Part shown: positions 4,109 through 42,547 of the stretch, piece by piece
How positions within the stretch are numbered: position 1 is the stretch's first letter
Layout: every line of letters begins with the position of its first letter
IMG/VR virus record: IMGVR_UViG_3300020045_002575
Location: 1 to 47,157 of that record
Origin: a virus
Taxonomy: Duplodnaviria; Caudoviricetes
Length of the DNA stretch: 47,157 nucleotides
Reading direction: 5' to 3' (one strand)
Notes under the pieces: model-generated
Seen by the model: only the letters and a program-made list of their open reading frames with translations
What the model was told of the DNA's origin: nothing
The model's database searches: none
Position numbers and translations under genes: made by a program

Positions 4109-6619
4109 TTATTCATAAGTCGTTTCGTATCTGAATTCATAAAGTCCCGGATCAAATATTTCGCCGGTTTGATCCTTGCAACCCACGCGTCCGGTGATTC
4201 TGTATTTCGCGCCCGGTTGCAACAAGTCGGGGTCGACTAAACAAGACGTTTTCAAAATCTTGTTCGTCACGTCGACTTCCATTTTCAATTTTGTTTCACC
4301 CGTCAAAGGTATCAAAGGATTGTCAGTTTCCGAACCCCAAACCGATGACAATTGTCGCATTTCCATACGTCCCGCGCCCCGGTCGATCTCGATGGTCGTC
4401 ACTCCATAGGTTTTGGAAAGATCCCAAATCCCGTCGTCCAATATGTCGAAGGAAATTTCGATTCGCGTCGGTTCGTTCGACAAGATCACACCCAACGGTT
4501 TTCCGCTTTCCGGATCCGTCCCGACATTTAACAATGTGTCATCCGAATCCCTGAAATATTGGTGTGTCGTGTCGATGTTTTGGTTTTCGTCGTAATCCAC
4601 GAACTTCATTTTGAACTGGTTTTTGTACTGCAACAAATCACCGTTGACTACGGCGTCGATCTTTGCGTAAAAATTCACGATCCAACCATTCGTCCGGATG
4701 TAGTTGATCCAATCGTTGTTGAACCCGTTGTTGGTTGCGTTTGCGTTGAAAAAAGCGGGTGGCGTCGACTGGTTCAACAACCAATCTTCATAACGGATCT
4801 TTGTCGCGAAATATGCCATATATCCGTAAAAATCGACCGTGTCCAACAACGGTTCGCGTTTCACCTTCACCCAATTTTTGTTGTTTCCGGGTTCCAGTTT
4901 GAAACCCCTTGATTGGTCAAAATCGAATTGTTGCGTCCCGGCGGAATCCTTTGGAAATTGCGTCAAGTCGATTTCATATTTTTCCAAGACGAAATCGTCG
5001 TTCAAACCGATGTTGAAGGCTTCGACGCCGAATTCGATCTTTTGGAACACGACCGTTTTATCTTTCTTGATCCTGAAAGGGATCCGCATCAAAATATCAT
5101 CCTGAACCAATCCGTCCAACATCGTTTCGCCGACATTGGTTTCGTCAAACGGGTGTTCGATGAACTTTGCGTCGATATATGGATATTCGCCCGCCGGCGG
5201 AATGTTTTTCACCAAGGAATTGAAGTCAGCCAACAACGAAACGCGGTCGGAAAAATTGCGTCCCAATGATCCGTCGGCAACCGACACCCAAAGGATGAAA
5301 TTTCGATCGCTTGGATCCTTCTTGTCGAACAAGGCGAAAAAAGCCGGGTTCGGAATGAAATTGGCTTCCATCACTATTTTTCCGTTTATCCCGGTGAATT
5401 TTACCGTGGACGAATCCATTGACGCGCCGTCGATTCCCGCCCCGAAATTGACCGCCGGGAACAAGGTGTTCAACGTGAATCCGTTGGTCAACGATCCCGA
5501 TTGCACGAACAAATTTCGATACAACGGCGTTTCCTTGTTCTTATAGTCGGATTCGTTTGAAGGGATCCACGCGAACCCGAAACCGCATTCCGTTTGCGAA
5601 TTCAGGTTTGGAACGCCCGAAACGACTATTTTGACCTTTGTTTCCGTCGCGTAATCCATCGCGTCGACCTGATTTCCGTTCACGTCGAAATATTGCACGG
5701 AATCGATCTTAAAATCGTTCGACAACTGGTTGAAATTTTCGTCGAACCAACCGGTGTTTCCCAAACGTTCGGTTTGCTTCAAATTGTTTTTGATTTTTAC
5801 GTTGGGATTGTTCCATTCCGGATAAAATTCGATCGAAAAATTGTCGGTCAAGGATCCGTCGCCGGTCAAGTATGAAGGCATTTCCATATTTTCGAAATTG
5901 GAAAGGTCTTCAAACAATGATGAAATCATATATTGAACCTTGATGTCGTATTCATAAACATTGTCCGTTCCGTTCTTTTTCCCGTATGGTTTGACCTCGA
6001 TCATCCGAATCGACATTCCCGATTGAAGTCCAACGGCTTCCATTTGTTGGAATGTCCCGTTGTTCAATATGTTGGGTTTGACGAATTCCGAAATCGTCCC
6101 GTCGATCAATGAATTCAAGTTTGTGGATTGGAAATTCTCGTTTGTCAGGTGCGAATATTTGAACCGCAACCCTTCCGGCATTTTGTCGACATAGATTTTT
6201 ACTTCCGAAATTTTCTTGTTTCCAAAATTGGTCGGAATACTATCGAAGGACTGGACGTTGATCGCTTGCGCCACTTCAATCGTGGATCCATAGACATTCG
6301 TGATCGTGTACGTTTGAACGTATGGCGTGACGGTTTCAAAAGTTCCGTCGTTGTTCGTGTCTTGTGAATAAATATATTTCAATATCACGGACATTCCATT
6401 GTCGAATCCGTAATCACCCCAATTTTTACCATTTAACAAGGTGAAAGACCGGTTGATGTAGTCAATTTGCAATGGTTGTTCCTGTGTTGCGATATAGTCC
6501 ACGGACGCTTCGACTTTTAGGTTCAAAGTTTGCCATTCGCCGACGTTTCCCAACAACCAATCGGTTGTCCCGTTGGTGAAAATTTCTTCGTAATTCCTAT
6601 TGATTATTTTTACTGGCAT
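4109..6619 (-). CDS. Tail/baseplate structural protein (836 aa)
   Basis: Long beta-rich ORF between the tail-tip gene and the fibre. Confidence 0.65.
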   Translation of the reverse strand: MPVKIINRNYEEIFTNGTTDWLLGNVGEWQTLNLKVEASVDYIATQEQPLQIDYINRSFTLLNGKNWGDYGFDNGMSVILKYIYSQDTNNDGTFETVTPYVQTYTITNVYGSTIEVAQAINVQSFDSIPTNFGNKKISEVKIYVDKMPEGLRFKYSHLTNENFQSTNLNSLIDGTISEFVKPNILNNGTFQQMEAVGLQSGMSIRMIEVKPYGKKNGTDNVYEYDIKVQYMISSLFEDLSNFENMEMPSYLTGDGSLTDNFSIEFYPEWNNPNVKIKNNLKQTERLGNTGWFDENFNQLSNDFKIDSVQYFDVNGNQVDAMDYATETKVKIVVSGVPNLNSQTECGFGFAWIPSNESDYKNKETPLYRNLFVQSGSLTNGFTLNTLFPAVNFGAGIDGASMDSSTVKFTGINGKIVMEANFIPNPAFFALFDKKDPSDRNFILWVSVADGSLGRNFSDRVSLLADFNSLVKNIPPAGEYPYIDAKFIEHPFDETNVGETMLDGLVQDDILMRIPFRIKKDKTVVFQKIEFGVEAFNIGLNDDFVLEKYEIDLTQFPKDSAGTQQFDFDQSRGFKLEPGNNKNWVKVKREPLLDTVDFYGYMAYFATKIRYEDWLLNQSTPPAFFNANATNNGFNNDWINYIRTNGWIVNFYAKIDAVVNGDLLQYKNQFKMKFVDYDENQNIDTTHQYFRDSDDTLLNVGTDPESGKPLGVILSNEPTRIEISFDILDDGIWDLSKTYGVTTIEIDRGAGRMEMRQLSSVWGSETDNPLIPLTGETKLKMEVDVTNKILKTSCLVDPDLLQPGAKYRITGRVGCKDQTGEIFDPGLYEFRYETTYE

Positions 6620-6848
6620 CCTGAAACTGTTTTATAAGGTTTTGCGCTTCGATTATTTTTCCATCTTTCGCCAAAGACGTGACTTTTGTCATCAACGTTT
6701 TAACTTCGTCAATCTTTTTTTTGTCGCCGTCCGGCGCGCCCATCAAGGATTGTTGGATTATGTTTTCAAATATACGGTTTTGCTCGTTCATTTGATTTAT
6801 AGCATTTCTTGCCAACTCCGATTGTTCCAATATCATTTTTAAGTCCAT
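6597..6848 (-). CDS. Small helical hypothetical protein in the tail module (83 aa)
   Basis: Fills the gap and overlaps the downstream start. Confidence 0.7.
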   Translation of the reverse strand: MDLKMILEQSELARNAINQMNEQNRIFENIIQQSLMGAPDGDKKKIDEVKTLMTKVTSLAKDGKIIEAQNLIKQFQDASKNNQ

Positions 6849-11600: not shown

Positions 11601-11918
11601 TTGTTTGGCGCGCTCCAACAATATTTCGTTTTGCAACGTGGCTTTCAATTGGGCGGAATATTCCTTTTCAACCTTGATTACCTCGTTTTTTGCCGACGCC
11701 AATTGTTTGAATTGGGCGTTGGACGATTCGATTTGCGCTTCCAAGGTTTTCAAGGCGGAAAGATCCATCGTGTTGAACGCTTCGTTCACGTCCTTTTTGT
11801 ATTTGTTCGCCTTTCCGACAAGTTCCAGTCCCAAAGTGTCGAAATCCGCGATCACTTTTTTGAATCCGCCGTCGTCTTCGAAAAATTCACTATACCGAAA
11901 GATTATATTTTCACTCAT
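8607..11918 (-). CDS. Tape measure protein (1103 aa)
   Basis: Long coiled-coil, GRNQRNVGNY motif, central hydrophobic stretch, C-terminal GxSHxGxxxGIPILVEGREG motif; follows the frameshifted chaperone pair. Confidence 0.9.
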   Translation of the reverse strand: MSENIIFRYSEFFEDDGGFKKVIADFDTLGLELVGKANKYKKDVNEAFNTMDLSALKTLEAQIESSNAQFKQLASAKNEVIKVEKEYSAQLKATLQNEILLERAKQAKIQTDTKEIQGIKELEKAIQQENNTKKSAIALTEAERKAGESNARSMKVQKGAYAELSADLRALFTESANVASEMFVLEKAGLKASPQYQRLDKIFQNLKGRTIELDGAMKKIDSTLGRNQRNVGNYASGYSGINNSINQITRELPAFTFSMQTGILALSNNIPILTDEIGRLIQTNKQLVAEGKPVKSVLSQIVGGVLSLQTAMGAGILLLTLYGKEIGIWAQSLFGASEAMKELTQNQKDFLEAKLTGRKDAQSDIIEMRKYLAVAKDRKVSDEERNIALKALRDQFPFYFKNLTDAQILAGQYAEAEKELTVALEKRKEVEKKTDLNVKNKQKLIDINTEIDLQKQVVKDARIRSVELSKSVALTEQYAESIQKLGKEEGKLSSLRKEAGKFSKSIIKNDNDIFKLKKETIALEYKEEKQKKDKASRDQQQINNVDFQSSDFQLRKMILDNTIKSNAEIFASDKYTLDQRLEAQKLMVAQMLSLAELERREALRLLSNKYQEEKNATLKDSEGKVVARKYTQNGLLELEKQYFLDRKAIQETFRQAEVDANKKAEKVMTLDTLNFQLQNLQYLQKNLSDKSETYVAYAKKISAIQTQINKIISQEKGLELTDKITVNENELTRIEKFRDRMFGKFDKTDNRRITLKEQKQILKDIEAFEKEKTDIESDYEIQRKLARLKSIDEEKKSFVENSNEFKQLEIEAQGIKKQLQNDEIKRRLDAEKEANKSSLEQFKDFFDDFNKLMGLVLDRLIEITQKRIDQDKVLLENQKKTIDVQQERASQGLDNTLAYEQRALGKREADLIKHEKQEQRLQKIKTIYTSYAGYANQDPSTALTKALRDFALLEAITASFGDGGIVEDKLPSDGIFRGQSHKGNNRGIPILVEGREGIFSSREMENLGKENFYRMKDIASSGKVDSNFFTGQRQQFVHSIGRQTKSDPGLVNEMREVKKAIEGKPVQNWDVASVADGVMELVETVITKNKVQRNHFTTKKRRL

Positions 11919-12270
11919 AATTTTGCTTTTTTGGATTCTTTTCCTTTAAATATTCAACCGATGCGTAAAAAGTGAAAGTGGACATTTTTCGTAAATCCGA
12001 ACCGGTCAATTCCGTGACGTTCAACGCGAATTTTTGGAAATCAACTTCCAAGATCCTTTCCATATTGTTTTCCGACCACACGTCCCATTTGTTTGGTTTG
12101 TCGTTTTCCAAGATCTCTTTTTCAACTTCGTACAACGGGACGTCGACTTCTTTTTCCGTGATTATTTCGTCACACAATAGATTCAACCTTCGAACCCGCA
12201 ACGCCAAAATTTCGACGTTTGCATTCTTTGGAAAAAAGTTTTTATAATAGACATCCAATTCCAATTCGAT
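11911..12270 (-). CDS. Tail assembly chaperone, -1 frameshift extension (gpT-like)
   Basis: No good start of its own; entered by a -1 slip at the A10 run (12270-12279), giving ...VKKK-IELELDVYY. Confidence 0.75.
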   Translation of the reverse strand: MELELDVYYKNFFPKNANVEILALRVRRLNLLCDEIITEKEVDVPLYEVEKEILENDKPNKWDVWSENNMERILEVDFQKFALNVTELTGSDLRKMSTFTFYASVEYLKEKNPKKQNYE

Positions 12271-12674
12271 TTTTTTTTTACTTCACGAAGTTGATTAAAC
12301 ATCGTTTCATAATCGAACCCAATGTCGTTCAATTTTTGCATCACCAAGTCAAGGTCGTTTGGCGCGTATTCGACGAACTTTTGTTTGTCGATCCTTTTGA
12401 CCAAGACGGCAAACGATCTTGAATTCGGGTTTGATTCGTTGAACGCGTTGAACACGGCTTGTCTTCGATTTTTCAATTCTTGCATCGCTTCCGGAACCAT
12501 ATTTTTTTGAAGGAATGCCAACGCCTTTTGTGTCCGCAATTCATAATCGTTAAAGTCGCAACCGATGTCGCACGCGATCATTTGGTATTTGTTGAACTTT
12601 TGAAAACGAAGGATCGGAAGGTTTTGGATCGAATCGTAAATCTCGATTTCGTGACCCTTAAATTTATATATCAT
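12183..12674 (-). CDS. Tail assembly chaperone (gpG-like)
   Basis: Lies upstream of the tape measure gene and contains the slippery run GTA AAA AAA AAA. Confidence 0.75.
   Translation of the reverse strand: MIYKFKGHEIEIYDSIQNLPILRFQKFNKYQMIACDIGCDFNDYELRTQKALAFLQKNMVPEAMQELKNRRQAVFNAFNESNPNSRSFAVLVKRIDKQKFVEYAPNDLDLVMQKLNDIGFDYETMFNQLREVKKKSNWNWMSIIKTFFQRMQTSKFWRCGFEG
12270..12281 (-). other. Programmed -1 ribosomal frameshift site (GT + A10)
   Basis: Frame arithmetic: the downstream ORF is in the -1 frame, at the canonical lambda G/GT position. Confidence 0.75.
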
Positions 12675-13001: not shown

Positions 13002-14243
13002 TTATGGAATCGGAATCGTCACGATTATCGGATTACTAAATTCCGAATATTCATCCAAGATGTTGGAAACCCTTATTTTGAATTCATAAGTCCCACCATA
13101 AATCATATTTTGCATTAAATCGCCATTTAATCCAAGGATATTTCCCAAATAATTGTCCTTGAATGTTTTATATAAAACACCGTCTTTCCAATATTCCACG
13201 GTCTTAATTGTTCCCATATATGGCAAATATTCCGCCGACAACATAAAAGACGCCCCGAATCCGGGCGGATTGTAACCGTCGGCGACAAGGTTGATCGGTG
13301 GTGATAATATTGAAACATCATTGTCAACCGGTCGTAAAAAAGTACTTAAATTCGAAGTTCCACAACCATTTTGAACCATCGTGTTCAACATTATCACTTC
13401 ATCATTTCCGTTGTAGTTTATCGTTAACAATCCGGTTTGTGCATTCAATGAAAACCCGGAAAGATTCGTGATAAAAGGAACATAATAATCATAAAAAGTC
13501 GGATTGTTCGTGGCTTCGATTTGCAATTGAAGTTCAACGCCTTTTGTGAAAAACATCGCATTGGTAAACTGGTTTAATACAAAAGGCGTGATCACCGGTA
13601 ATTGACAACCGCCGGAACCGCTTTCCGATCCGCTTCCCGCATAAGCAAAACCGCCGTGGCAATCTTCTTGAATCCTGACATCCATTTCAAAACGGAAACA
13701 TTGCATTGGCGCGCGATTGTATGATTCAATGTCATCCAACACAAATTCCCGAAAACATTCTTTCAAATCCCGCGTTTCACCTTTCAATATATAGTCGAAT
13801 TCGTGATTCAACATCGTGTTGGTCAATAATCGACGAACATCCCGGATCAATTCTTGCGTGAATAAACCTTGGTTCAACTTTGGTTTGTCGATCAACTCCA
13901 AGTTCACCGAAAAAATGATCGAAACCGGATAAGTCAAGAAATTTTGTTGACTGGATTGAAAATCGTTTTTATTGGTTCCAACCATAAAGAAACACATTCC
14001 TTTGAAGTCGTTGTCCGGGGTTAATCGTTTATAGTTTCGAAGTCCGGACGCTTCCGGCGCGTAGGTTTCCGGATAATAAAACGCCTTTTCTTTTTCCCTT
14101 CGAAAGAAACGTTGGGCGATGAAATACGGACGATCCAACCAAGGAAGTCCGGACAATACCTTGCGGATCTCATTGACCGCGAATTCAATTTCTATTGGCG
14201 ACCCGATGATCACGGGTTTGTCTTGTAGTTTTGTTATTGACAT
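13002..14243 (-). CDS. Tail completion/terminator-like protein with C-terminal Ig-like and FN3-like extension (413 aa)
   Basis: Position in the neck module; GS linker at about aa 200; LSGFSLNAQTGLLT (Ig-like) and PPINL..GGTYEFKIRVSN..SEFSNPI (FN3-like). Confidence 0.6.
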   Translation of the reverse strand: MSITKLQDKPVIIGSPIEIEFAVNEIRKVLSGLPWLDRPYFIAQRFFRREKEKAFYYPETYAPEASGLRNYKRLTPDNDFKGMCFFMVGTNKNDFQSSQQNFLTYPVSIIFSVNLELIDKPKLNQGLFTQELIRDVRRLLTNTMLNHEFDYILKGETRDLKECFREFVLDDIESYNRAPMQCFRFEMDVRIQEDCHGGFAYAGSGSESGSGGCQLPVITPFVLNQFTNAMFFTKGVELQLQIEATNNPTFYDYYVPFITNLSGFSLNAQTGLLTINYNGNDEVIMLNTMVQNGCGTSNLSTFLRPVDNDVSILSPPINLVADGYNPPGFGASFMLSAEYLPYMGTIKTVEYWKDGVLYKTFKDNYLGNILGLNGDLMQNMIYGGTYEFKIRVSNILDEYSEFSNPIIVTIPIP

Positions 14244-18126: not shown

Positions 18127-18741
18127 TTAGTTTTTTTGTTCCGCCAACCAAGTTTCGATCGCCGTTTTGATGTCTTCCGATTTTTTCAATCCGGAAAGAT
18201 CAATTTTGTTCGATTCCGCGAATGCCTTCATTTCGGCGATTGTTTCGCCAAATTTCACGGCTTCGTCGGTTGCCGGTGGCGTTCCTTGACCTTGTGTTCC
18301 TTTTTCGGCTTCCATTTTTGCCAATCTTGCGTTGAACAATTCGTCGGCTTTGGCGTTGGCTTTGGCTTCGATTTCGGCTTCGATTTCTTCCGGGGTCTTG
18401 GTTATTGCCGGTGGCGTGTCGGTTGTTCCTGATTGTGGCGCGGTTTGCGTTTCTTCAACCGGGTTTTGGTTTGGATCGTGAACGACGATCAATTTGTTGA
18501 AACCAAGTATTTGGAAATTCTTTTCCAGTTTTTGGAATCCCGATTCGTGGAACATTTGAACATTCACCGAAACATCGTTTTTCGCTTGTCCGGGACGATC
18601 CGTGATTCTCACCATTGCAACGTGGTAATGGTTGCGGTCTTCGAAATTGATTTCTTCTTTTATGATCCCGGCTTTTTCAGAATCAAGGGCGTTAATTTCC
18701 TTCAACGCCTGTTGGTAATTGCTTACTTTTAATGTTTTCAT
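18127..18741 (-). CDS. Head-module protein with low-complexity linker and C-terminal HeH/LEM-like domain (204 aa)
   Basis: TIAEMKAFAESNKIDLSGLKKSEDIKTAI resembles helix-extension-helix motifs. Confidence 0.55.
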   Translation of the reverse strand: MKTLKVSNYQQALKEINALDSEKAGIIKEEINFEDRNHYHVAMVRITDRPGQAKNDVSVNVQMFHESGFQKLEKNFQILGFNKLIVVHDPNQNPVEETQTAPQSGTTDTPPAITKTPEEIEAEIEAKANAKADELFNARLAKMEAEKGTQGQGTPPATDEAVKFGETIAEMKAFAESNKIDLSGLKKSEDIKTAIETWLAEQKN

Positions 18742-20428
18742 TTGTGTAAATAATTAAGGTTTTTTTAATTGCTTCGATCCTTTGATACGGTTCCAAGTTG
18801 GTTCCGAATTGCGTGATCGGTGCGTTTTCGCTTTCAAATTTAGTAATAAAATTCAAAAAATTGATTTTTAATGTCAAATCAAAAGAATCTATGATGTTTT
18901 TGTCTTTCATTGAAACCGCTTCCGTGATAGAATACAACGGCAACGGATCCAGTTGCAACAACATTTTTTGTCTTTCGATCTTGACTTCGTTTCCCTTGTA
19001 TTTAGTTTCGATCAATTGGGTGTAAATCATCAAAAGTTCTTCCATTGGAAACCCGGAATCCTTCGCCATCTTATATCGCTTTTGCAAGTCGTCTTCCGAT
19101 ACCAAATAAAATTCCGTCCCGAAATTAGCGTCGACATCCAATTCGATGTCCTTGTACATTAATTTTCCAACGGTTGAAACGATCCATTTATATAATTCAT
19201 CCAATTCCGTTTTTGTTCGCAACAATATTGATTCCATTGACGCGAAAGATCCTTTGACTTGTAGTTCGTTTATGGCTTCCGAATTTATATTGTTCACACC
19301 TACGGTCTTGAAACGGACTTCCAATTCAATGTCGTCCAGTTTTTCCGGAACATACTTCAATTTGTCGACATCCGGAAAGATCATTTTAAACACCCCGGAT
19401 CCATCGTTGATCGACTTGTCCGATTGAACCTTGATTCCGATGTGTGTTCCCGGATAAATGTGTTGACCGCCGTCCGATCCGCCACAAGCGGAACAATCCG
19501 TCCAAATAGTCTTCATTGAACCCGAACGTGGATCGTCCACGATTTCTTCCGAAACCTTTCCGTCATTACATTCAGGATTTGGACATTTTCTTTTGGGTGC
19601 TTCCGTTACCGGGAAAGGCGCGTAATGATCGACATAATTTCGAAATATGTCGAATATCGTCCAGTCTTCCAACTTGGAAAGAGCGGACGAAAACGCGATC
19701 CGTCTTTTGAATTTGTTCTTTTGGTTTGAAGTGGTCTTCACGAATGATTTTGCGGGACAATATCCGATCCCGTGTGCGTTACTACTTTCCAAGACAATCG
19801 CGTCCGCGTTTGAATCCTTTGAAAATACGTAATAAGTGGCGTCATCATAAACAGAAAAAAACGTCGTGATGACGTCGTCTTTTTTTTGTTGTGAATGGAT
19901 AAAGGCGATATATTCCAAATTTCCTTCGTCGTCCTTGAACACCGCGTCAACCAACCGGTTCGAATCTACAAAAACCAAATAAGGGTTTCCGCTTTCGTCA
20001 CGATCTACAACCGCAAATGAATTCGGCTTATTCTTGAAAACTTGTTTTGCAAATTTTTCGATCCATCTTGATGGTTTTTCTCTTGAAATCCATTGGTTTA
20101 ATGTTTCGACATCGCGATCACCTTCAATATTAAAAAACCTGTTTTTACCTTCAAAAACCTTGAAATAATCATTCAAGATTGAATCGCATAATTGAACGAC
20201 CGGCAATGGATAACGCGCAAATTCAATAACCCTTTCAAATTTCTTGTTTGATCTTGACTTCATCTTGGACAACAATTCATCCCAATAGGATTCACTTTTC
20301 AATTCGTCTTGCGACATTTCTTCCGTGAAAACCCGCAATTGGGATTCTTGTTTCTTTACCGATAAAATTTCCTTTTTTGACTTTGGATTCTTGATGACAT
20401 CCATCGCCGTGGTTTCGTTCAATGTCAT
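18692..20428 (-). CDS. Portal protein (578 aa) with Cys4 insertion
   Basis: Size and position between TerL and scaffold; CPNPEC...CSACGG insertion. Confidence 0.75.
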   Translation of the reverse strand: MTLNETTAMDVIKNPKSKKEILSVKKQESQLRVFTEEMSQDELKSESYWDELLSKMKSRSNKKFERVIEFARYPLPVVQLCDSILNDYFKVFEGKNRFFNIEGDRDVETLNQWISREKPSRWIEKFAKQVFKNKPNSFAVVDRDESGNPYLVFVDSNRLVDAVFKDDEGNLEYIAFIHSQQKKDDVITTFFSVYDDATYYVFSKDSNADAIVLESSNAHGIGYCPAKSFVKTTSNQKNKFKRRIAFSSALSKLEDWTIFDIFRNYVDHYAPFPVTEAPKRKCPNPECNDGKVSEEIVDDPRSGSMKTIWTDCSACGGSDGGQHIYPGTHIGIKVQSDKSINDGSGVFKMIFPDVDKLKYVPEKLDDIELEVRFKTVGVNNINSEAINELQVKGSFASMESILLRTKTELDELYKWIVSTVGKLMYKDIELDVDANFGTEFYLVSEDDLQKRYKMAKDSGFPMEELLMIYTQLIETKYKGNEVKIERQKMLLQLDPLPLYSITEAVSMKDKNIIDSFDLTLKINFLNFITKFESENAPITQFGTNLEPYQRIEAIKKTLIIYTNENIKSKQLPTGVEGN

Positions 20429-32116: not shown

Positions 32117-32437
32117 TTAATTGAATAGGTTTAATTGATCTTTAGGAAGACGGTTTTTTTGTTGTGTCAACGAATATTCCTTGGAAATCCATATCGACAC
32201 CGGCTTTCCGTGTCCCTGTCTTGCCTTGTATATCCCGAAACCGTGGCGTTTTATCAATCCAAGTTTGTGGATTTCCCGAACAATCGACCCAATGATCCTT
32301 TGTTCTTCCGGAATTCCCAACGCTTCAAACATCGCCGGTTTAAGGTCTTCCGACGTGAACGGTTTGAATTGCTTTTTAACCCATTCGACGGTGAATGAAT
32401 AGGCTTTTAAATAATAGTCTTGGTTTAAATTTTCCAC
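32117..32437 (-). CDS. Hypothetical protein, possible winged helix (106 aa, GTG start inside a hairpin loop)
   Basis: FTSEDL..IGSIVRE..KLGLIK; ends with QLNLF, a clamp-binding-like motif. Confidence 0.65.
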   Translation of the reverse strand: MENLNQDYYLKAYSFTVEWVKKQFKPFTSEDLKPAMFEALGIPEEQRIIGSIVREIHKLGLIKRHGFGIYKARQGHGKPVSIWISKEYSLTQQKNRLPKDQLNLFN

Positions 32438-32445
32438 GATTTAAA
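32424..32445 (-). repeat. Leader hairpin copy A (core TAAATTTTCCACGATTTA)
   Basis: 18-bp exact match to 36562-36579; 7-bp stem; mRNA loop CGUGGAAA contains the GUG start. Confidence 0.75.
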
Positions 32446-32455
32446 GTTTTAGTAT

Positions 32456-32475
32456 GACACCCGTTTCCGGGTGTC
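32456..32475. other. GC hairpin GACACCCG-GAAA-CGGGTGTC with no minus-strand U-tract
   Basis: Perfect 8-bp stem; the T-run is on the plus side only. Confidence 0.6.
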
Positions 32476-32485
32476 TTTTGGTTTC

Positions 32486-33019
32486 TTAATTGGTTTTTCT
32501 TGTGGTGGTGATGAATCGGAAATGTGGTTCAACCAACACGCCGTCAACCCAAATCAAACGGGCGTGAACCGTTTTGTCGCTTTTTGAAATGATGAATTCC
32601 AGTTTTGAACCGCGATCCTTGATCAATTCGACTTTGTAGTGCGCGTGTCCGAATCCTTCTTGAACCAAGGTGCGAACCAAACGATCCACTTTTTCGTCGA
32701 ATGATTTTTTGGCGTTGACGATCGTTTTCAAAGTGATCGTGGCGTCCAATTCCAATTCGCGTTTCAACAAGTCGATTCCGCGTTGGTATCTTTCAACAGT
32801 GTCGAACTTGTTGGCACGGTTGACAATGCGTGTCGGGAAATTCGCGATCAATTTTTCAAGTTGTTTGATCTTGTTGTTTCTTAATTTGAATTGAAAAGCA
32901 ACGGTCGAATTCAAATATTCGTTTTCAAAATCCAATAGTTTTCGTCTTAAATCTGAATTGATGTATTCGAAGTTTTGACGATCCCTTGTTTCTTGCGCTT
33001 TGTTGGTTTTAGCTTCCAT
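32486..33019 (-). CDS. Early hypothetical protein (177 aa, start MEAKTN)
   Basis: The track start at 33082 overlaps the promoter; ATG 33019 follows an (ACAA)n leader. Confidence 0.75.
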   Translation of the reverse strand: MEAKTNKAQETRDRQNFEYINSDLRRKLLDFENEYLNSTVAFQFKLRNNKIKQLEKLIANFPTRIVNRANKFDTVERYQRGIDLLKRELELDATITLKTIVNAKKSFDEKVDRLVRTLVQEGFGHAHYKVELIKDRGSKLEFIISKSDKTVHARLIWVDGVLVEPHFRFITTTRKTN

Positions 33020-33048
33020 TTTTGTGATTGTTTGTTTGTTTGTTGATG

Positions 33049-33079
33049 CAAATATACATTTAAAAATGTATTCACCAAA
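33049..33079 (-). promoter_or_regulatory. Early promoter 3 with palindromic operator (33054-33071)
   Basis: TTTG-N19-TATATTTG; ATACATTT-N2-AAATGTAT. Confidence 0.9.
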
Positions 33080-33099
33080 CATTTTTTAATTTATTTTCA

Positions 33100-36104: not shown

Positions 36105-36545
36105 TTATTGATTATCTTGATCTATTCCGCCCGGCATCGTGTCCCAATCCGGTTCGTTGGTTTCTTGGTGGTCGCAATTTGGGTTTTCACACTTCCAGTC
36201 CGTCCAAGTACACGCCCCGGATCCGTCTTCAATTGGATCCATTTCACAACCGCATTCCGGACAATGGTGTTCGGATCCGTCGCCCCAAACATAAATCGAC
36301 TTTAACAATTCCGGAATTTCCTTGTTCGTGTTTCCGGGAAATATTAATTCGATGAAATCTTTTATTTCCCAACCGTTCAAATCCAATATTTCTTGGATCG
36401 TCTTTCCATAGTCGAAATAATGTTGTTCGATCAATTGTTCGTGAACTAATACCCAAATGATTTTGTCTTCAAGGTCGCGCCCATTTAATCCGGTTGCCGT
36501 TGACAACACGCGAAAAGGATCGTTTTGTTTGATTGTTGTGTTCAT
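36105..36545 (-). CDS. Zinc-ribbon protein (146 aa)
   Basis: CPECG...WKCENPNC. Confidence 0.7.
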   Translation of the reverse strand: MNTTIKQNDPFRVLSTATGLNGRDLEDKIIWVLVHEQLIEQHYFDYGKTIQEILDLNGWEIKDFIELIFPGNTNKEIPELLKSIYVWGDGSEHHCPECGCEMDPIEDGSGACTWTDWKCENPNCDHQETNEPDWDTMPGGIDQDNQ

Positions 36546-36560
36546 ATTTTTGTTTGTTTG

Positions 36561-36580
36561 ATAAATTTTCCACGATTTAT
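36561..36580 (-). repeat. Leader hairpin copy B (core TAAATTTTCCACGATTTA)
   Basis: Exact 18-bp match to 32426-32443; sits just upstream of ATG 36545. Confidence 0.75.
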
Positions 36581-36582
36581 TT

Positions 36583-36825
36583 TTACAACTCCCTTATTTC
36601 CTGAATGGTGAATTCAAGGGTTTCGATTTTGTCGGTCAGTTCGTCAAAACGTTCCTGTAATTTTTCCGTTTCTTCCTGAAACGTTTCGCCTTTTTCCGAT
36701 TCTTGCCATTTTTCGGAACGATCATTGAATTTTTCTTCCCTTGCCTCTATTTTTAATTCTAACATAGACGCGTGTTCTTTCAATTTTTCAATGTTTTTTT
36801 CGATGTTAATCAATACTTTTTCCAT
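36583..36825 (-). CDS. Early acidic coiled-coil protein (80 aa, start MEKVLI)
   Basis: First gene after promoter 2; RSEKWQESEKGE motif. Confidence 0.75.
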   Translation of the reverse strand: MEKVLINIEKNIEKLKEHASMLELKIEAREEKFNDRSEKWQESEKGETFQEETEKLQERFDELTDKIETLEFTIQEIREL

Positions 36826-36847
36826 TTTTTTGATTTGTTTGTTGATG

Positions 36848-36878
36848 CAAATATACATTTAAAAATGTATTACGCAAA
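36848..36878 (-). promoter_or_regulatory. Early promoter 2 with palindromic operator (36853-36870)
   Basis: TTTG-N19-TATATTTG; identical palindrome. Confidence 0.9.
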
Positions 36879-36898
36879 CATTTTTTGATTTATTTCAA

Positions 36899-40324: not shown

Positions 40325-41257
40325 TTATTTGGTTAGTTTTTTAGTGACTATTTTCATTTTTTCTTCGTATGCGTTTTTTGTTTCGTCGTCGATCAAGGCT
40401 TCGAAACAACTTTCAAGTTGATTCATCGTCTTTGCGTTGGCGATGAAATCCAAAGTCCTTTTTTGGACAATTAATCGGTTGCTTTCTTCCAAAGTCAATT
40501 TCGGGGCGTTGTTCGGATTGTCCGCATAGTTCAAATTGTTTCCGTCCATATCGTCGATGATCGCTTGGTCGAATCGGATCGCCTTTTTCATTTCCGTGGA
40601 CTTTGGCGCGTATTTGTCCAACAACAATTTCAACACGGTTTTTTTTCCCATTCCGTCGAAGTCTTTTTGCCAACCGTTGTTTTTGTCGGTAAAATTCTTT
40701 GACCATTTTCGACCGTGTTCGTTCATTTCCTTGATGGTCATATACAACGACTTTTCGAACCCGTTGGTCAACTTGAAATATGCAATATATCCGATGATCG
40801 GAAGTTTTTTCCGTTCGTCCTGATCCAAACTTGAATCCAACTTGACTTCGCCGGTCATCCTATCCGTTCCCAAATATTCGCCCTGTCTTACGTCGCCCGA
40901 ATTTAACCCGCGAAACTGGTTCGAACGGTGTCCCAGTTCGACCAATCCTTTGTAACCGATTTGAACTTGCGCCAAAGTCTTCCAAATTAATCCTTCTTTC
41001 ACCTTGTATGTTCCGATGAACGCTTGTCCAAACGAAGGATCGATCAATAAGTTCATCGACGCAATGGCGGAAACTGAATTCAAGATGGATTGTGGATCCG
41101 CTTTCGACAACTCGAAATCCTTTTGGACAACTTGCAACGCGGAATATAAAAATGACATCGCGTTGTCGCCCAACATTTCTTTGAACTTGTCTTTTGTTTC
41201 TTGACGCTCGATCAATTCTTTGAACGAAACGACTTGCGGTTTTTGATCTTTATTCAT
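40325..41257 (-). CDS. recT: RecT-family single-strand annealing protein
   Basis: ADPQSI, LLIDPSFGQAF, QIGYKGLVEL, W..DFDGMGKKTVLK. Confidence 0.9.
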   Translation of the reverse strand: MNKDQKPQVVSFKELIERQETKDKFKEMLGDNAMSFLYSALQVVQKDFELSKADPQSILNSVSAIASMNLLIDPSFGQAFIGTYKVKEGLIWKTLAQVQIGYKGLVELGHRSNQFRGLNSGDVRQGEYLGTDRMTGEVKLDSSLDQDERKKLPIIGYIAYFKLTNGFEKSLYMTIKEMNEHGRKWSKNFTDKNNGWQKDFDGMGKKTVLKLLLDKYAPKSTEMKKAIRFDQAIIDDMDGNNLNYADNPNNAPKLTLEESNRLIVQKRTLDFIANAKTMNQLESCFEALIDDETKNAYEEKMKIVTKKLTK

Positions 41258-41504
41258 TTTTTTGTTCAATTATGAATTTGTTCACATCGCATTTTCCAAG
41301 ATCCATCAACTTGAAAATGATGATCACCCATTTTGGGGTTTTTCCGCCTTTCCAGTCCGTAAAAACTTGCGGGTTCACGTTTAGGATTTCCGCCAATATT
41401 TTTCGGCTCAACGGCATTAATTCCGGATTTTCCTTGTTGTACGCTTCGATAACTTGATCAACGTCGATAATGTACTTTTTTTCTTGAACTTGTTGTTCCA
41501 TCAT
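41250..41504 (-). CDS. Cro/XRE-like HTH regulator (84 aa)
   Basis: LSRKILAEILNVNPQVFTDWKGGKTP. Confidence 0.7.
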   Translation of the reverse strand: MMEQQVQEKKYIIDVDQVIEAYNKENPELMPLSRKILAEILNVNPQVFTDWKGGKTPKWVIIIFKLMDLGKCDVNKFIIEQKNE

Positions 41505-41662: not shown

Positions 41663-41821
41663 TTAGTTTAATGAATTGAAAAATTGAATCCCTATTTCGT
41701 CGTTTTCCAGTTGCACGACCAAAAAAAAGCCGTCTTTTTCAAGGGAACACAAAAACCAAAATTCGATTTCAAGTTGGTTTCCCGTCCGGATCAAGTCGTT
41801 GAAAAGGGTTTGTTTTTCCAT
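41663..41821 (-). CDS. First early protein (52 aa, start MEKQTL)
   Basis: Follows promoter 1 and the ACAAACAAATCAAAAAA leader. Confidence 0.65.
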   Translation of the reverse strand: MEKQTLFNDLIRTGNQLEIEFWFLCSLEKDGFFLVVQLENDEIGIQFFNSLN

Positions 41822-41842
41822 TTTTTGATTTGTTTGTTGATG

Positions 41843-41873
41843 CAAATATACATTTAAAAATGTATTGTGCAAA
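41843..41873 (-). promoter_or_regulatory. Early promoter 1 with palindromic operator (41848-41865)
   Basis: TTTG-N19-TATATTTG; identical palindrome. Confidence 0.9.
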
Positions 41874-41894
41874 CATTTTAAAATTTATTTATGT

Positions 41895-41927
41895 AAAAAA
41901 GAAAACGCCACCGTTTCGGGTGGCGTT
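41895..41927 (-). terminator. Intrinsic terminator ending the lysis operon / sRNA1
   Basis: AACGCCACC-CGAAAC-GGTGGCGTT plus T-run. Confidence 0.85.
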
Positions 41928-41969
41928 CTAACAAACAAACTTTTCGTGAAGATTTCGTGGAAAAATCTT
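41895..41969 (-). ncRNA. Candidate trans-acting small RNA 1 (about 75 nt)
   Basis: TATATTTG at 41980-41973; 5' hairpin AAGAUUU-UUCCACG-AAAUCUU; linker GUUUGUUUGUU; terminator. Confidence 0.55.
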
Positions 41970-41983
41970 TGGCAAATATAAAA

Positions 41984-42547
41984 TTATTTATTCAAAAATG
42001 GAATTCCGGTGCGTGTTATGTGGAAATAAATCGAAACCAAAAACAACAAGGAAACCACTATCAAGACGATCCACAATTTTAAAACCGATCGTTTTGTTTC
42101 CACGATCTCGGATTCTTTTTCCAACAATTCTTTTTGACCCTGTTTTATTTGCGCCAAATATTTTGTTTCCAGTCTTTCGATGTCTTTTTTTGTTTCTTCC
42201 GACGACTTGATCAATTCGTTTTGGATCGTCCTGATCAACACTTCGCCGTTTCCGTTGATCTCGATTGTTTGCGGTTTTCCGTCCTTGGTGTTCTTGTAAT
42301 TGAAGGGAACAAATTTTCCGTCCGTCCCGATCTTTGGTGTGTACTTGACCACCGTTTCCGTGGCGGTGTTCTTTTCGTCCTGTTTTGATGTTTTGTCACT
42401 TTGGATTTCGGATTGTTTTTTTTCTTCCACGTTGACCGCCAATTCCGATTCATTTATTGTTTTTTCCTTGATTTCCGACGTTTTTTTCGAACCGGAACAT
42501 CCAAGTGTCAAAATGATCAAAATGATCGCTAAAATAGATTTTTTCAT
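41984..42547 (-). CDS. Unimolecular spanin candidate (lipoprotein + C-terminal TM, 187 aa)
   Basis: MKKSILAIILIILTLG|C lipobox; C-terminal LWIVLIVVSLLFLVSIYF; follows the endolysin. Confidence 0.75.
   Translation of the reverse strand: MKKSILAIILIILTLGCSGSKKTSEIKEKTINESELAVNVEEKKQSEIQSDKTSKQDEKNTATETVVKYTPKIGTDGKFVPFNYKNTKDGKPQTIEINGNGEVLIRTIQNELIKSSEETKKDIERLETKYLAQIKQGQKELLEKESEIVETKRSVLKLWIVLIVVSLLFLVSIYFHITRTGIPFLNK

Follow-up and report, generated by a model that had tools for sequence, protein, structure and literature searches.

A conserved phage cassette that probably specifies a small antisense RNA directed at early-gene translation starts

What is specified by the short stretch without an ORF that separates the lysis genes from the early genes of this phage, and what might it do to the genes that follow? 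The window analysed (the whole stretch of DNA, 47,157 nt) is a complete virus record with direct terminal repeats in which all family-matched ORFs lie on the minus strand, and its nearest cultured relatives are Flavobacterium phages tant8-1 and the FpV9/Fpv5-11/FPSV group. The gene order is holin, endolysin, a 187-aa gene that we take to be unimolecular-spanin-like, the RNA cassette and then the early genes (a small ORF, an XRE-like helix-turn-helix (HTH) protein, RecT, an exonuclease and replication genes). On the plus strand a 70-aa ORF at 41998-42210 gave no family match. Elsewhere in the window two overlapping ORFs at 11911-12674 match consecutive halves of phrog_8914 just before a tape-measure-like gene, and phage 1/32 has an annotated joined tail assembly chaperone at the matching position; the pair is probably a programmed frameshift. 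The cassette is encoded on the minus strand, after the lysis genes and ahead of the first early promoter. A −7 box is followed by a hairpin, a U-rich linker and a terminator, each found where a preliminary description of this DNA had placed it. The features of the region are as follows.

41984 to 42547, minus strand: last late gene (187 aa), with a lipoprotein-type signal peptide and a C-terminal hydrophobic segment, matching phrog_13143 (unknown function) and following the endolysin and holin genes; stop codon at 41986-41984
41980 to 41973, minus strand: −7 box TATATTTG, 3 nt behind the stop codon, recognized in the sequence by the consensus of PMC6847099
41895 to 41968, minus strand: predicted small RNA of about 74 nt (from the fold, the promoter spacing rule and homologues), with its start placed 4-5 nt after the −7 box
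41969 to 41949, minus strand: 5' hairpin predicted by folding (arms AAGAUUU and AAAUCUU, loop UUCCACG), presenting seed 1
41964 to 41955, minus strand: seed 1, UUUUCCACGA, complementary to RUGGAAAA start-codon regions
41940 to 41930, minus strand: U-rich linker GUUUGUUUGUU (seed 2), complementary to A-rich leaders
41929 to 41895, minus strand: intrinsic terminator (fold z −3.36)
41843 to 41873, minus strand: early promoter P1, TTTG-N19-TATATTTG
41250 to 41504, minus strand: 84-aa XRE-like HTH protein of the P1 operon, annotated XRE/HTH in relatives

The direction of the RNA is fixed as the minus strand by the U-run of the terminator, and the unit holds no ORF. In the predicted ensemble the loop CCACG of the first hairpin is unpaired and the linker is only partly so. 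Among homologues the terminator shows compensatory changes in six of its eight pairs; the first hairpin taken alone is weak (p 0.015-0.44) and RNAalifold made no call of it.

Relatives were sought by protein anchors (HTH, RecT, holin/exonuclease) and not by the motif. The HTH search gave 16 close records, 14 of which hold the junction, and the unit is present in all 14 (with the seeds in swapped order in three, L017-L019). The cassette is also present in FPSV-D19, L032, L046, L191 and L208, and tant8-1 and FPSV-D19 are the cultured relatives that carry it. With the other anchors a clear cassette was seen in 2 of 13 RecT loci, and in the 20 holin/exonuclease loci in one by eye (L208) and one more by model (L191). 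The 5' hairpin is in the minimum-energy fold of all 17 loci compared and of L208, with different stems in L007, L208 and L046. A motif scan of viral contigs returned 73 stretches, those real by eye being the already-known relatives only. Model R1 found no match in 151 Flavobacteriaceae genomes, a weak negative because its first hairpin is out of register (35% of cells paired); model R2 is R1 with the register corrected, and as its alignment includes two reverse-complement target matches and a misaligned L208 row its pair counts are not relied on. At the same junction the gut Bacteroides phage B124-14 (L186) has a promoter-to-terminator unit of about 230 nt without an ORF, between the lysis genes and the first early promoter (about 6410-6705, minus strand), which gave p=0.12 in the seed test, and a unit in phage 1/32 gave p=0.88; P2559S has no such unit in the stretches examined. 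Short units running from a −7 box to a terminator without an ORF also occur at L208 6209-6285 and at L184 5700-5790, no target being found for the latter. Three further observations concern individual relatives: L017 and L019 carry a variant RNA with swapped seed order (9652 and 9318, respectively); in L019 the end of a resolvase gene (14201-14241) matches three segments of its RNA (9, 7 and 10 nt); and L191 has its holin/lysis genes on the opposite strand from the spanin-cassette-early block, unlike all relatives, through either inversion or misassembly.

The Flavobacterium promoter consensus is TTTG/TANNTTTG with starts 4-5 nt past the −7 element, and adenines at −3, −6, −12 and −13 promote initiation (Baez et al., PMC6847099). 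This spacing rule would put the start of the RNA near 41968 and let each early transcript of the three begin with its AACAAACAAA site, host RNA polymerase presumably transcribing the RNA from the −7 box. As had been pointed out before, TTTG at −33 is missing in front of that box, but this is weak evidence against a promoter, the −33 motif being much less evident and often weak in Flavobacterium (PMC6847099). The box, TAnnTTTG, is found in 16 of 17 loci and has one mismatch in L012. An independent promoter is favoured because the box is kept in L208, where the unit stands 150 nt from the upstream stop codon, and because a terminator-like hairpin lies upstream of the unit in L012 and L060. The same observations bear on a different origin for the RNA, namely processing from the 3' end of the late lysis transcript; the RNA would still act as proposed below, but it would be made late only and would report late transcription to the early genes. 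Such an origin would suit a terminator that also ends the late operon and a box that follows the stop codon so closely with no TTTG at −33; in view of the near-constant −7 box, its retention in the detached unit of L208, the upstream hairpins of L012 and L060 and the frequent weakness of the −33 element we consider it improbable.

The complementarity reported earlier for the hairpin segment is exact, UCGUGGAAAA being found just twice on the coding strand of the window (36575 and 32439). AACAAACAAA, to which the linker is complementary, is at 41838, 36843 and 33044/33040, in the three early leaders for which it had been described, and at 36558, where the match before 36545 had been given as 8 nt and is 10 nt; additional copies are at 18127, 11073 and 10601. 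It should be noted that single matches of about 10 nt are weak evidence, since there are 39 perfect matches of at least 9 nt to the RNA on the coding strand and 16 on the other. A two-seed score, taken from the two longest non-overlapping Watson-Crick runs between a region and the RNA, is not chance-like: it is 17.7 in the window compared with 12.1 ± 1.1 for 400 shuffles. The best five of 55 start regions in the window are the three promoter leaders (18, 18 and 17), 36545 (20) and 32437 (17), and the next scores 13 (52 start regions other than the leaders); 36545 and 32437 are the preliminary description's own sites. The three leaders are not independent because P1, P2 and P3 are copies of one 88-nt repeat. 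With the window, tant8-1 and FPSV-D19 pooled, a score of at least 17 is reached by seven of nine early leaders and by 3 of 167 other start regions, whereas in a Flavobacteriaceae genome other than that of the true host all 252 start regions (400 kb) score below 17 against the window's RNA. Some coding windows do score like leaders, a few at 17-19, and when all 45-nt windows are ranked by RNAduplex energy the window's leaders come no higher than the best 16-20%, both partners being AU-rich. The predicted targets are as follows.

41813 to 41838, minus strand: predicted target 1, with the seed-2 site at 41838-41829 (the first bases of the mRNA) and the seed-1 site at 41820-41813 over the AUG at 41821
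36817 to 36855, minus strand: P2 −7 box and predicted target 2, with sites at 36843-36834 and at 36824-36817 over the AUG at 36825
33014 to 33056, minus strand: P3 −7 box and predicted target 3, with a site at 33044-33030 and the AUG at 33019
36549 to 36575, minus strand: predicted target before the ATG at 36545, with seed-1 site 36575-36566 followed by seed-2 site 36558-36549 (order swapped); the best score of the genome
32430 to 32449, minus strand: predicted target at the GUG start (32437) of a conserved 106-aa gene, with a 10-nt loop site and a 7-nt linker site upstream

In the P1 and P2 leaders the linker matches the first 10 bases and the loop matches UGGAAAAA over the AUG, in correct antiparallel order. 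That the loop is also complementary to the first genes' AUG-GAAAAA starts (41821 and 36825) had been overlooked, and because of it both seeds fit a single leader. On this model the main partner of the loop would be the start codon (GUG/AUG-GAA), and that of the linker the A-rich leader immediately before it. The 106-aa gene has homologues with a matching N-terminus. The first genes of the early operons (52-177 aa) vary from one relative to another and match no Pfam family above cut-off; in type I toxin-antitoxin systems the target of the antitoxin RNA encodes a small toxic peptide.

Two side observations concern the start sites. The GUG-GAA site at 36524-36574 opens a short upstream ORF (17 codons in the window), at the third promoter of FPSV-D19 GUG-GAA opens a 3-codon upstream ORF overlapping the next ATG, and in L003 it is in frame with the next gene, these varied arrangements suggesting translational coupling. 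The reverse complement of the 32437 start region (32411-32490, plus strand) resembles the RNA itself (model R2, E 0.31) and is preceded by TAGTCTTG, and in L003 the corresponding stretch (19550-19615, minus strand) is preceded by a perfect TAnnTTTG box; this is possibly a cis-antisense twin, seen in two genomes only, and there is a hairpin with a GAAA loop on the coding strand.

The strongest evidence for pairing comes from the way in which seeds and leaders change together. In 13 of 17 loci the RNA scores higher against its own phage's early leaders than 400 dinucleotide shuffles do (p<=0.025), the test being not significant in L003 (0.057), L016, L017 and L019, nor in L060 (0.13); L208 gave p=0.003 (300 shuffles) and L191 p=0.015. 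Among nine divergent phages the leaders are fitted best by the phage's own RNA in eight, the outcome that the seed-target covariation check of the preliminary description called for. Since seeds are shared by close relatives, the phage's own RNA comes first in just 6 of 17 cases in the full 17×17 matrix. In L006 the loop has changed to UUCCCAAAU and the leaders read AUUUGGGAA and UGGGAAAA, and in L012 the loop has changed to UUUUCCAUUA and the leader reads UAAUGGAAAA. The linker varies together with the leaders in D19, L032, L191 and L208: that of FPSV-D19 is changed and an 11-nt match is found in the P2 leader, with a further 9-nt match at the GUG, and that of L208 matches a leader perfectly over 15 nt, GUGGAAA being present in all three leaders tested. 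L046 (RecT at 37% identity, genes otherwise different) has an unrelated seed that makes 9+8 bp with one of its own leaders and 13 bp (one G-U) with another. The internal mismatches comprise four G-U (1.0 expected) and one A-C (1.45 expected), and with numbers this small the excess is a small hint of pairing at the RNA rather than the DNA level. To judge from the sequences, then, seeds and each phage's own leaders appear to change together, even where the seed is wholly different, with three provisos: the choice of promoters was made by eye with the sequences already in view, the leaders of any one genome are copies related to each other, and the lineages lack independence.

The covariation also weighs against two readings in which no RNA pairs with the leaders. 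It is very improbable that the shared words are DNA (or RNA) binding sites of a phage protein, inverted in the cassette: CGTGGAAA does lie 4-30 nt downstream of the early promoters, a usual operator position, and an XRE-like protein is encoded nearby, but there are two separate elements, both inverted and together in correct antiparallel order, the site in the cassette is in a hairpin loop within its own promoter-terminator unit, the seeds are wholly replaced in L046 and the mismatches favour G-U over A-C as above. The least credible reading of all is a late-operon terminator with merely an AU-rich 5' extension, its matches coming from the A-rich leaders and MEK/MEN starts common in Bacteroidota, which would fit the abundance of single matches and the modest duplex energies but not the far lower scores of other A-rich start regions in the same phages and in the host-family genome, nor a lineage-specific covariation that composition does not explain. 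As to transcriptional control, an inverted repeat AAAATGT...ACATTTT spans the −33 region of the early promoters (41850-41880, 36855-36885 and 33056-33086); it is also in FPSV-D19 and is absent from some relatives. The XRE-like protein, whose fold likeness is weak (best E 0.07), is a candidate repressor of these promoters and the repeat its candidate site.

How would the RNA engage its targets? The sequences at 32430 and 36566 had been described as leader hairpins, and loop-loop kissing had been suggested. Folding gave −1.3 and −1.5 kcal/mol for these two (z 0.4-0.5, no better than shuffles), and the predicted target regions overall fold at −0.2 to −1.5 kcal/mol, like shuffles. In loop-loop kissing antisense systems of the CopA/OxyS type the target site lies in a stable hairpin loop, and as the phage leaders have no hairpin with such fold support kissing is unlikely. 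Instead the exposed loop (CCACG) would nucleate on the GUG/AUG-GAA start in a largely unstructured start region, and the U-rich linker would then zipper over the A-rich leader, which Bacteroidota ribosomes use in place of a Shine-Dalgarno (SD) sequence. With the start region paired, initiation would be blocked, as demonstrated for GibS in Bacteroides (PMC7366714), and as the RNA accumulates the first genes of all early operons would be damped together.

We conclude that the conserved promoter-hairpin-linker-terminator cassette probably makes a trans-acting antisense RNA of about 74 nt that would pair with the phage's own early-gene translation starts and probably block their translation, so that in this lytic Bacteroidota phage early expression might be turned off with a delay. 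Delayed shut-off within the lytic cycle would be the most likely purpose and is the least supported step of the scheme; in a phage with no recognisable lysogeny genes it is the simplest use of such an RNA. Integrase, resolvase and ParA were not found in any of five complete genomes, positive controls being detected, and of the relatives tant8-1 and Fpv5 (PMC7077304) and FPSV-D22 (PMC7983945) are called lytic, making lysogenic immunity unlikely. Thus of the original proposal the two-seed antisense RNA against early genes is retained, its predicted pairing being in line with conservation and covariation, while kissing and lysogenic immunity are considered unlikely.

The main rival as to purpose is exclusion of kin, in which the RNA would build up in an infected or carrier cell and silence the earliest transcripts of a second related phage, seed variants defining exclusion groups as in P1/P7 C4; it is compatible with delayed early shut-off. 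The targets are indeed the first bases of the earliest transcripts, seeds diverge between lineages with own leaders fitting best in eight of nine, and C4 specificity works in this way (PMC5320573). We nevertheless regard it as unlikely, given the lack of integrase, resolvase and ParA in those five genomes, the failure to find the HTH in the bacterial genomes searched (0/401 in one search), the description of relatives as lytic and a loop that is identical in many lineages. Returning to delayed shut-off, a wider version, possible but doubtful, is that in virulent Bacteroidota phages one small RNA serves as a master early off-switch, with start codons (often GUG) and A-rich leaders written to match its seeds, and that seed swaps create lineage-specific exclusion groups without a lysogeny system. 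If the antisense reading is true, early-gene control would gain a new layer, an RNA with several targets in lytic phages of a phylum without SD sequences or Hfq. The retention of GUG-GAA starts by several early genes would then also be accounted for. The hypothesis is directly testable: cultures exist of tant8-1 and of the FpV9/FPSV-D22 group (used in aquaculture trials of phages), and the seed variants found in nature already form compensatory pairs.

No Rfam family matches the window at gathering score, and C4 is not among 18 weak matches (E up to 10) around the locus, in keeping with the earlier statement that the RNA is of no known family. A literature search covering mostly titles and the starts of abstracts found no description of it; in the supplements of PMC10690425 other than files 1, 2 and 4, two sequence words and two contig identifiers are absent, and the RNA may be among the candidates of that study. 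In its predicted working the RNA is like P1 C4 or GibS, but it lies outside C4 and any Rfam family. Known cases of phages controlling their own genes by antisense RNA come mainly from temperate coliphages and their lysogeny circuits, and the P4 CI RNA controls the phage's own genes by pairing in the lysis-lysogeny decision of a temperate phage. Lambda OOP is antisense to one mRNA (cII-O) and likewise serves the lysis-lysogeny decision (bioRxiv 2024.10.31.621285). Like these two, the RNA described here would pair with its phage's own genes, but it would be trans-encoded and act through short seeds on several predicted targets. Closer in timing are lambda PreS and VP882 VpdS, which act in trans during lytic development, as proposed here, but belong to temperate phages of Proteobacteria, PreS being Hfq-dependent with mainly host-gene targets (bioRxiv 2024.10.31.621285). 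The C4 RNA of P1/P7 has three stem-loops (P1-P3), is released from a precursor by RNase P and serves to maintain lysogeny (PMC5320573). Our unit resembles it in being phage-encoded, in its size (about 75-77 nt), in having two target-pairing elements, one predicted to lie over the ribosome-binding region, and in seed variation that tracks the target (PMC5320573). It differs in having one 5' hairpin, a linker, its own terminator and apparently its own promoter, in beginning right after the −7 box with no enclosing tRNA-like stem, and in its predicted aim at about five leaders in three operons, in phages without the lysogeny genes that the temperate immunity role of C4 implies. GibS of Bacteroides thetaiotaomicron, from a phylum with no obvious Hfq or ProQ, is an sRNA acting in trans: it pairs across the start-codon region of mRNAs without an SD sequence and thereby represses them (PMC7366714). 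GibS regulates host metabolism through a 5' seed that is long and unstructured, and no sequence relationship is implied, but the phage unit shares with this type of sRNA an apparent promoter and an intrinsic terminator of its own, the absence of an ORF, and an accessible seed (the linker only partly unpaired) predicted to be complementary to start regions and conserved with its targets.
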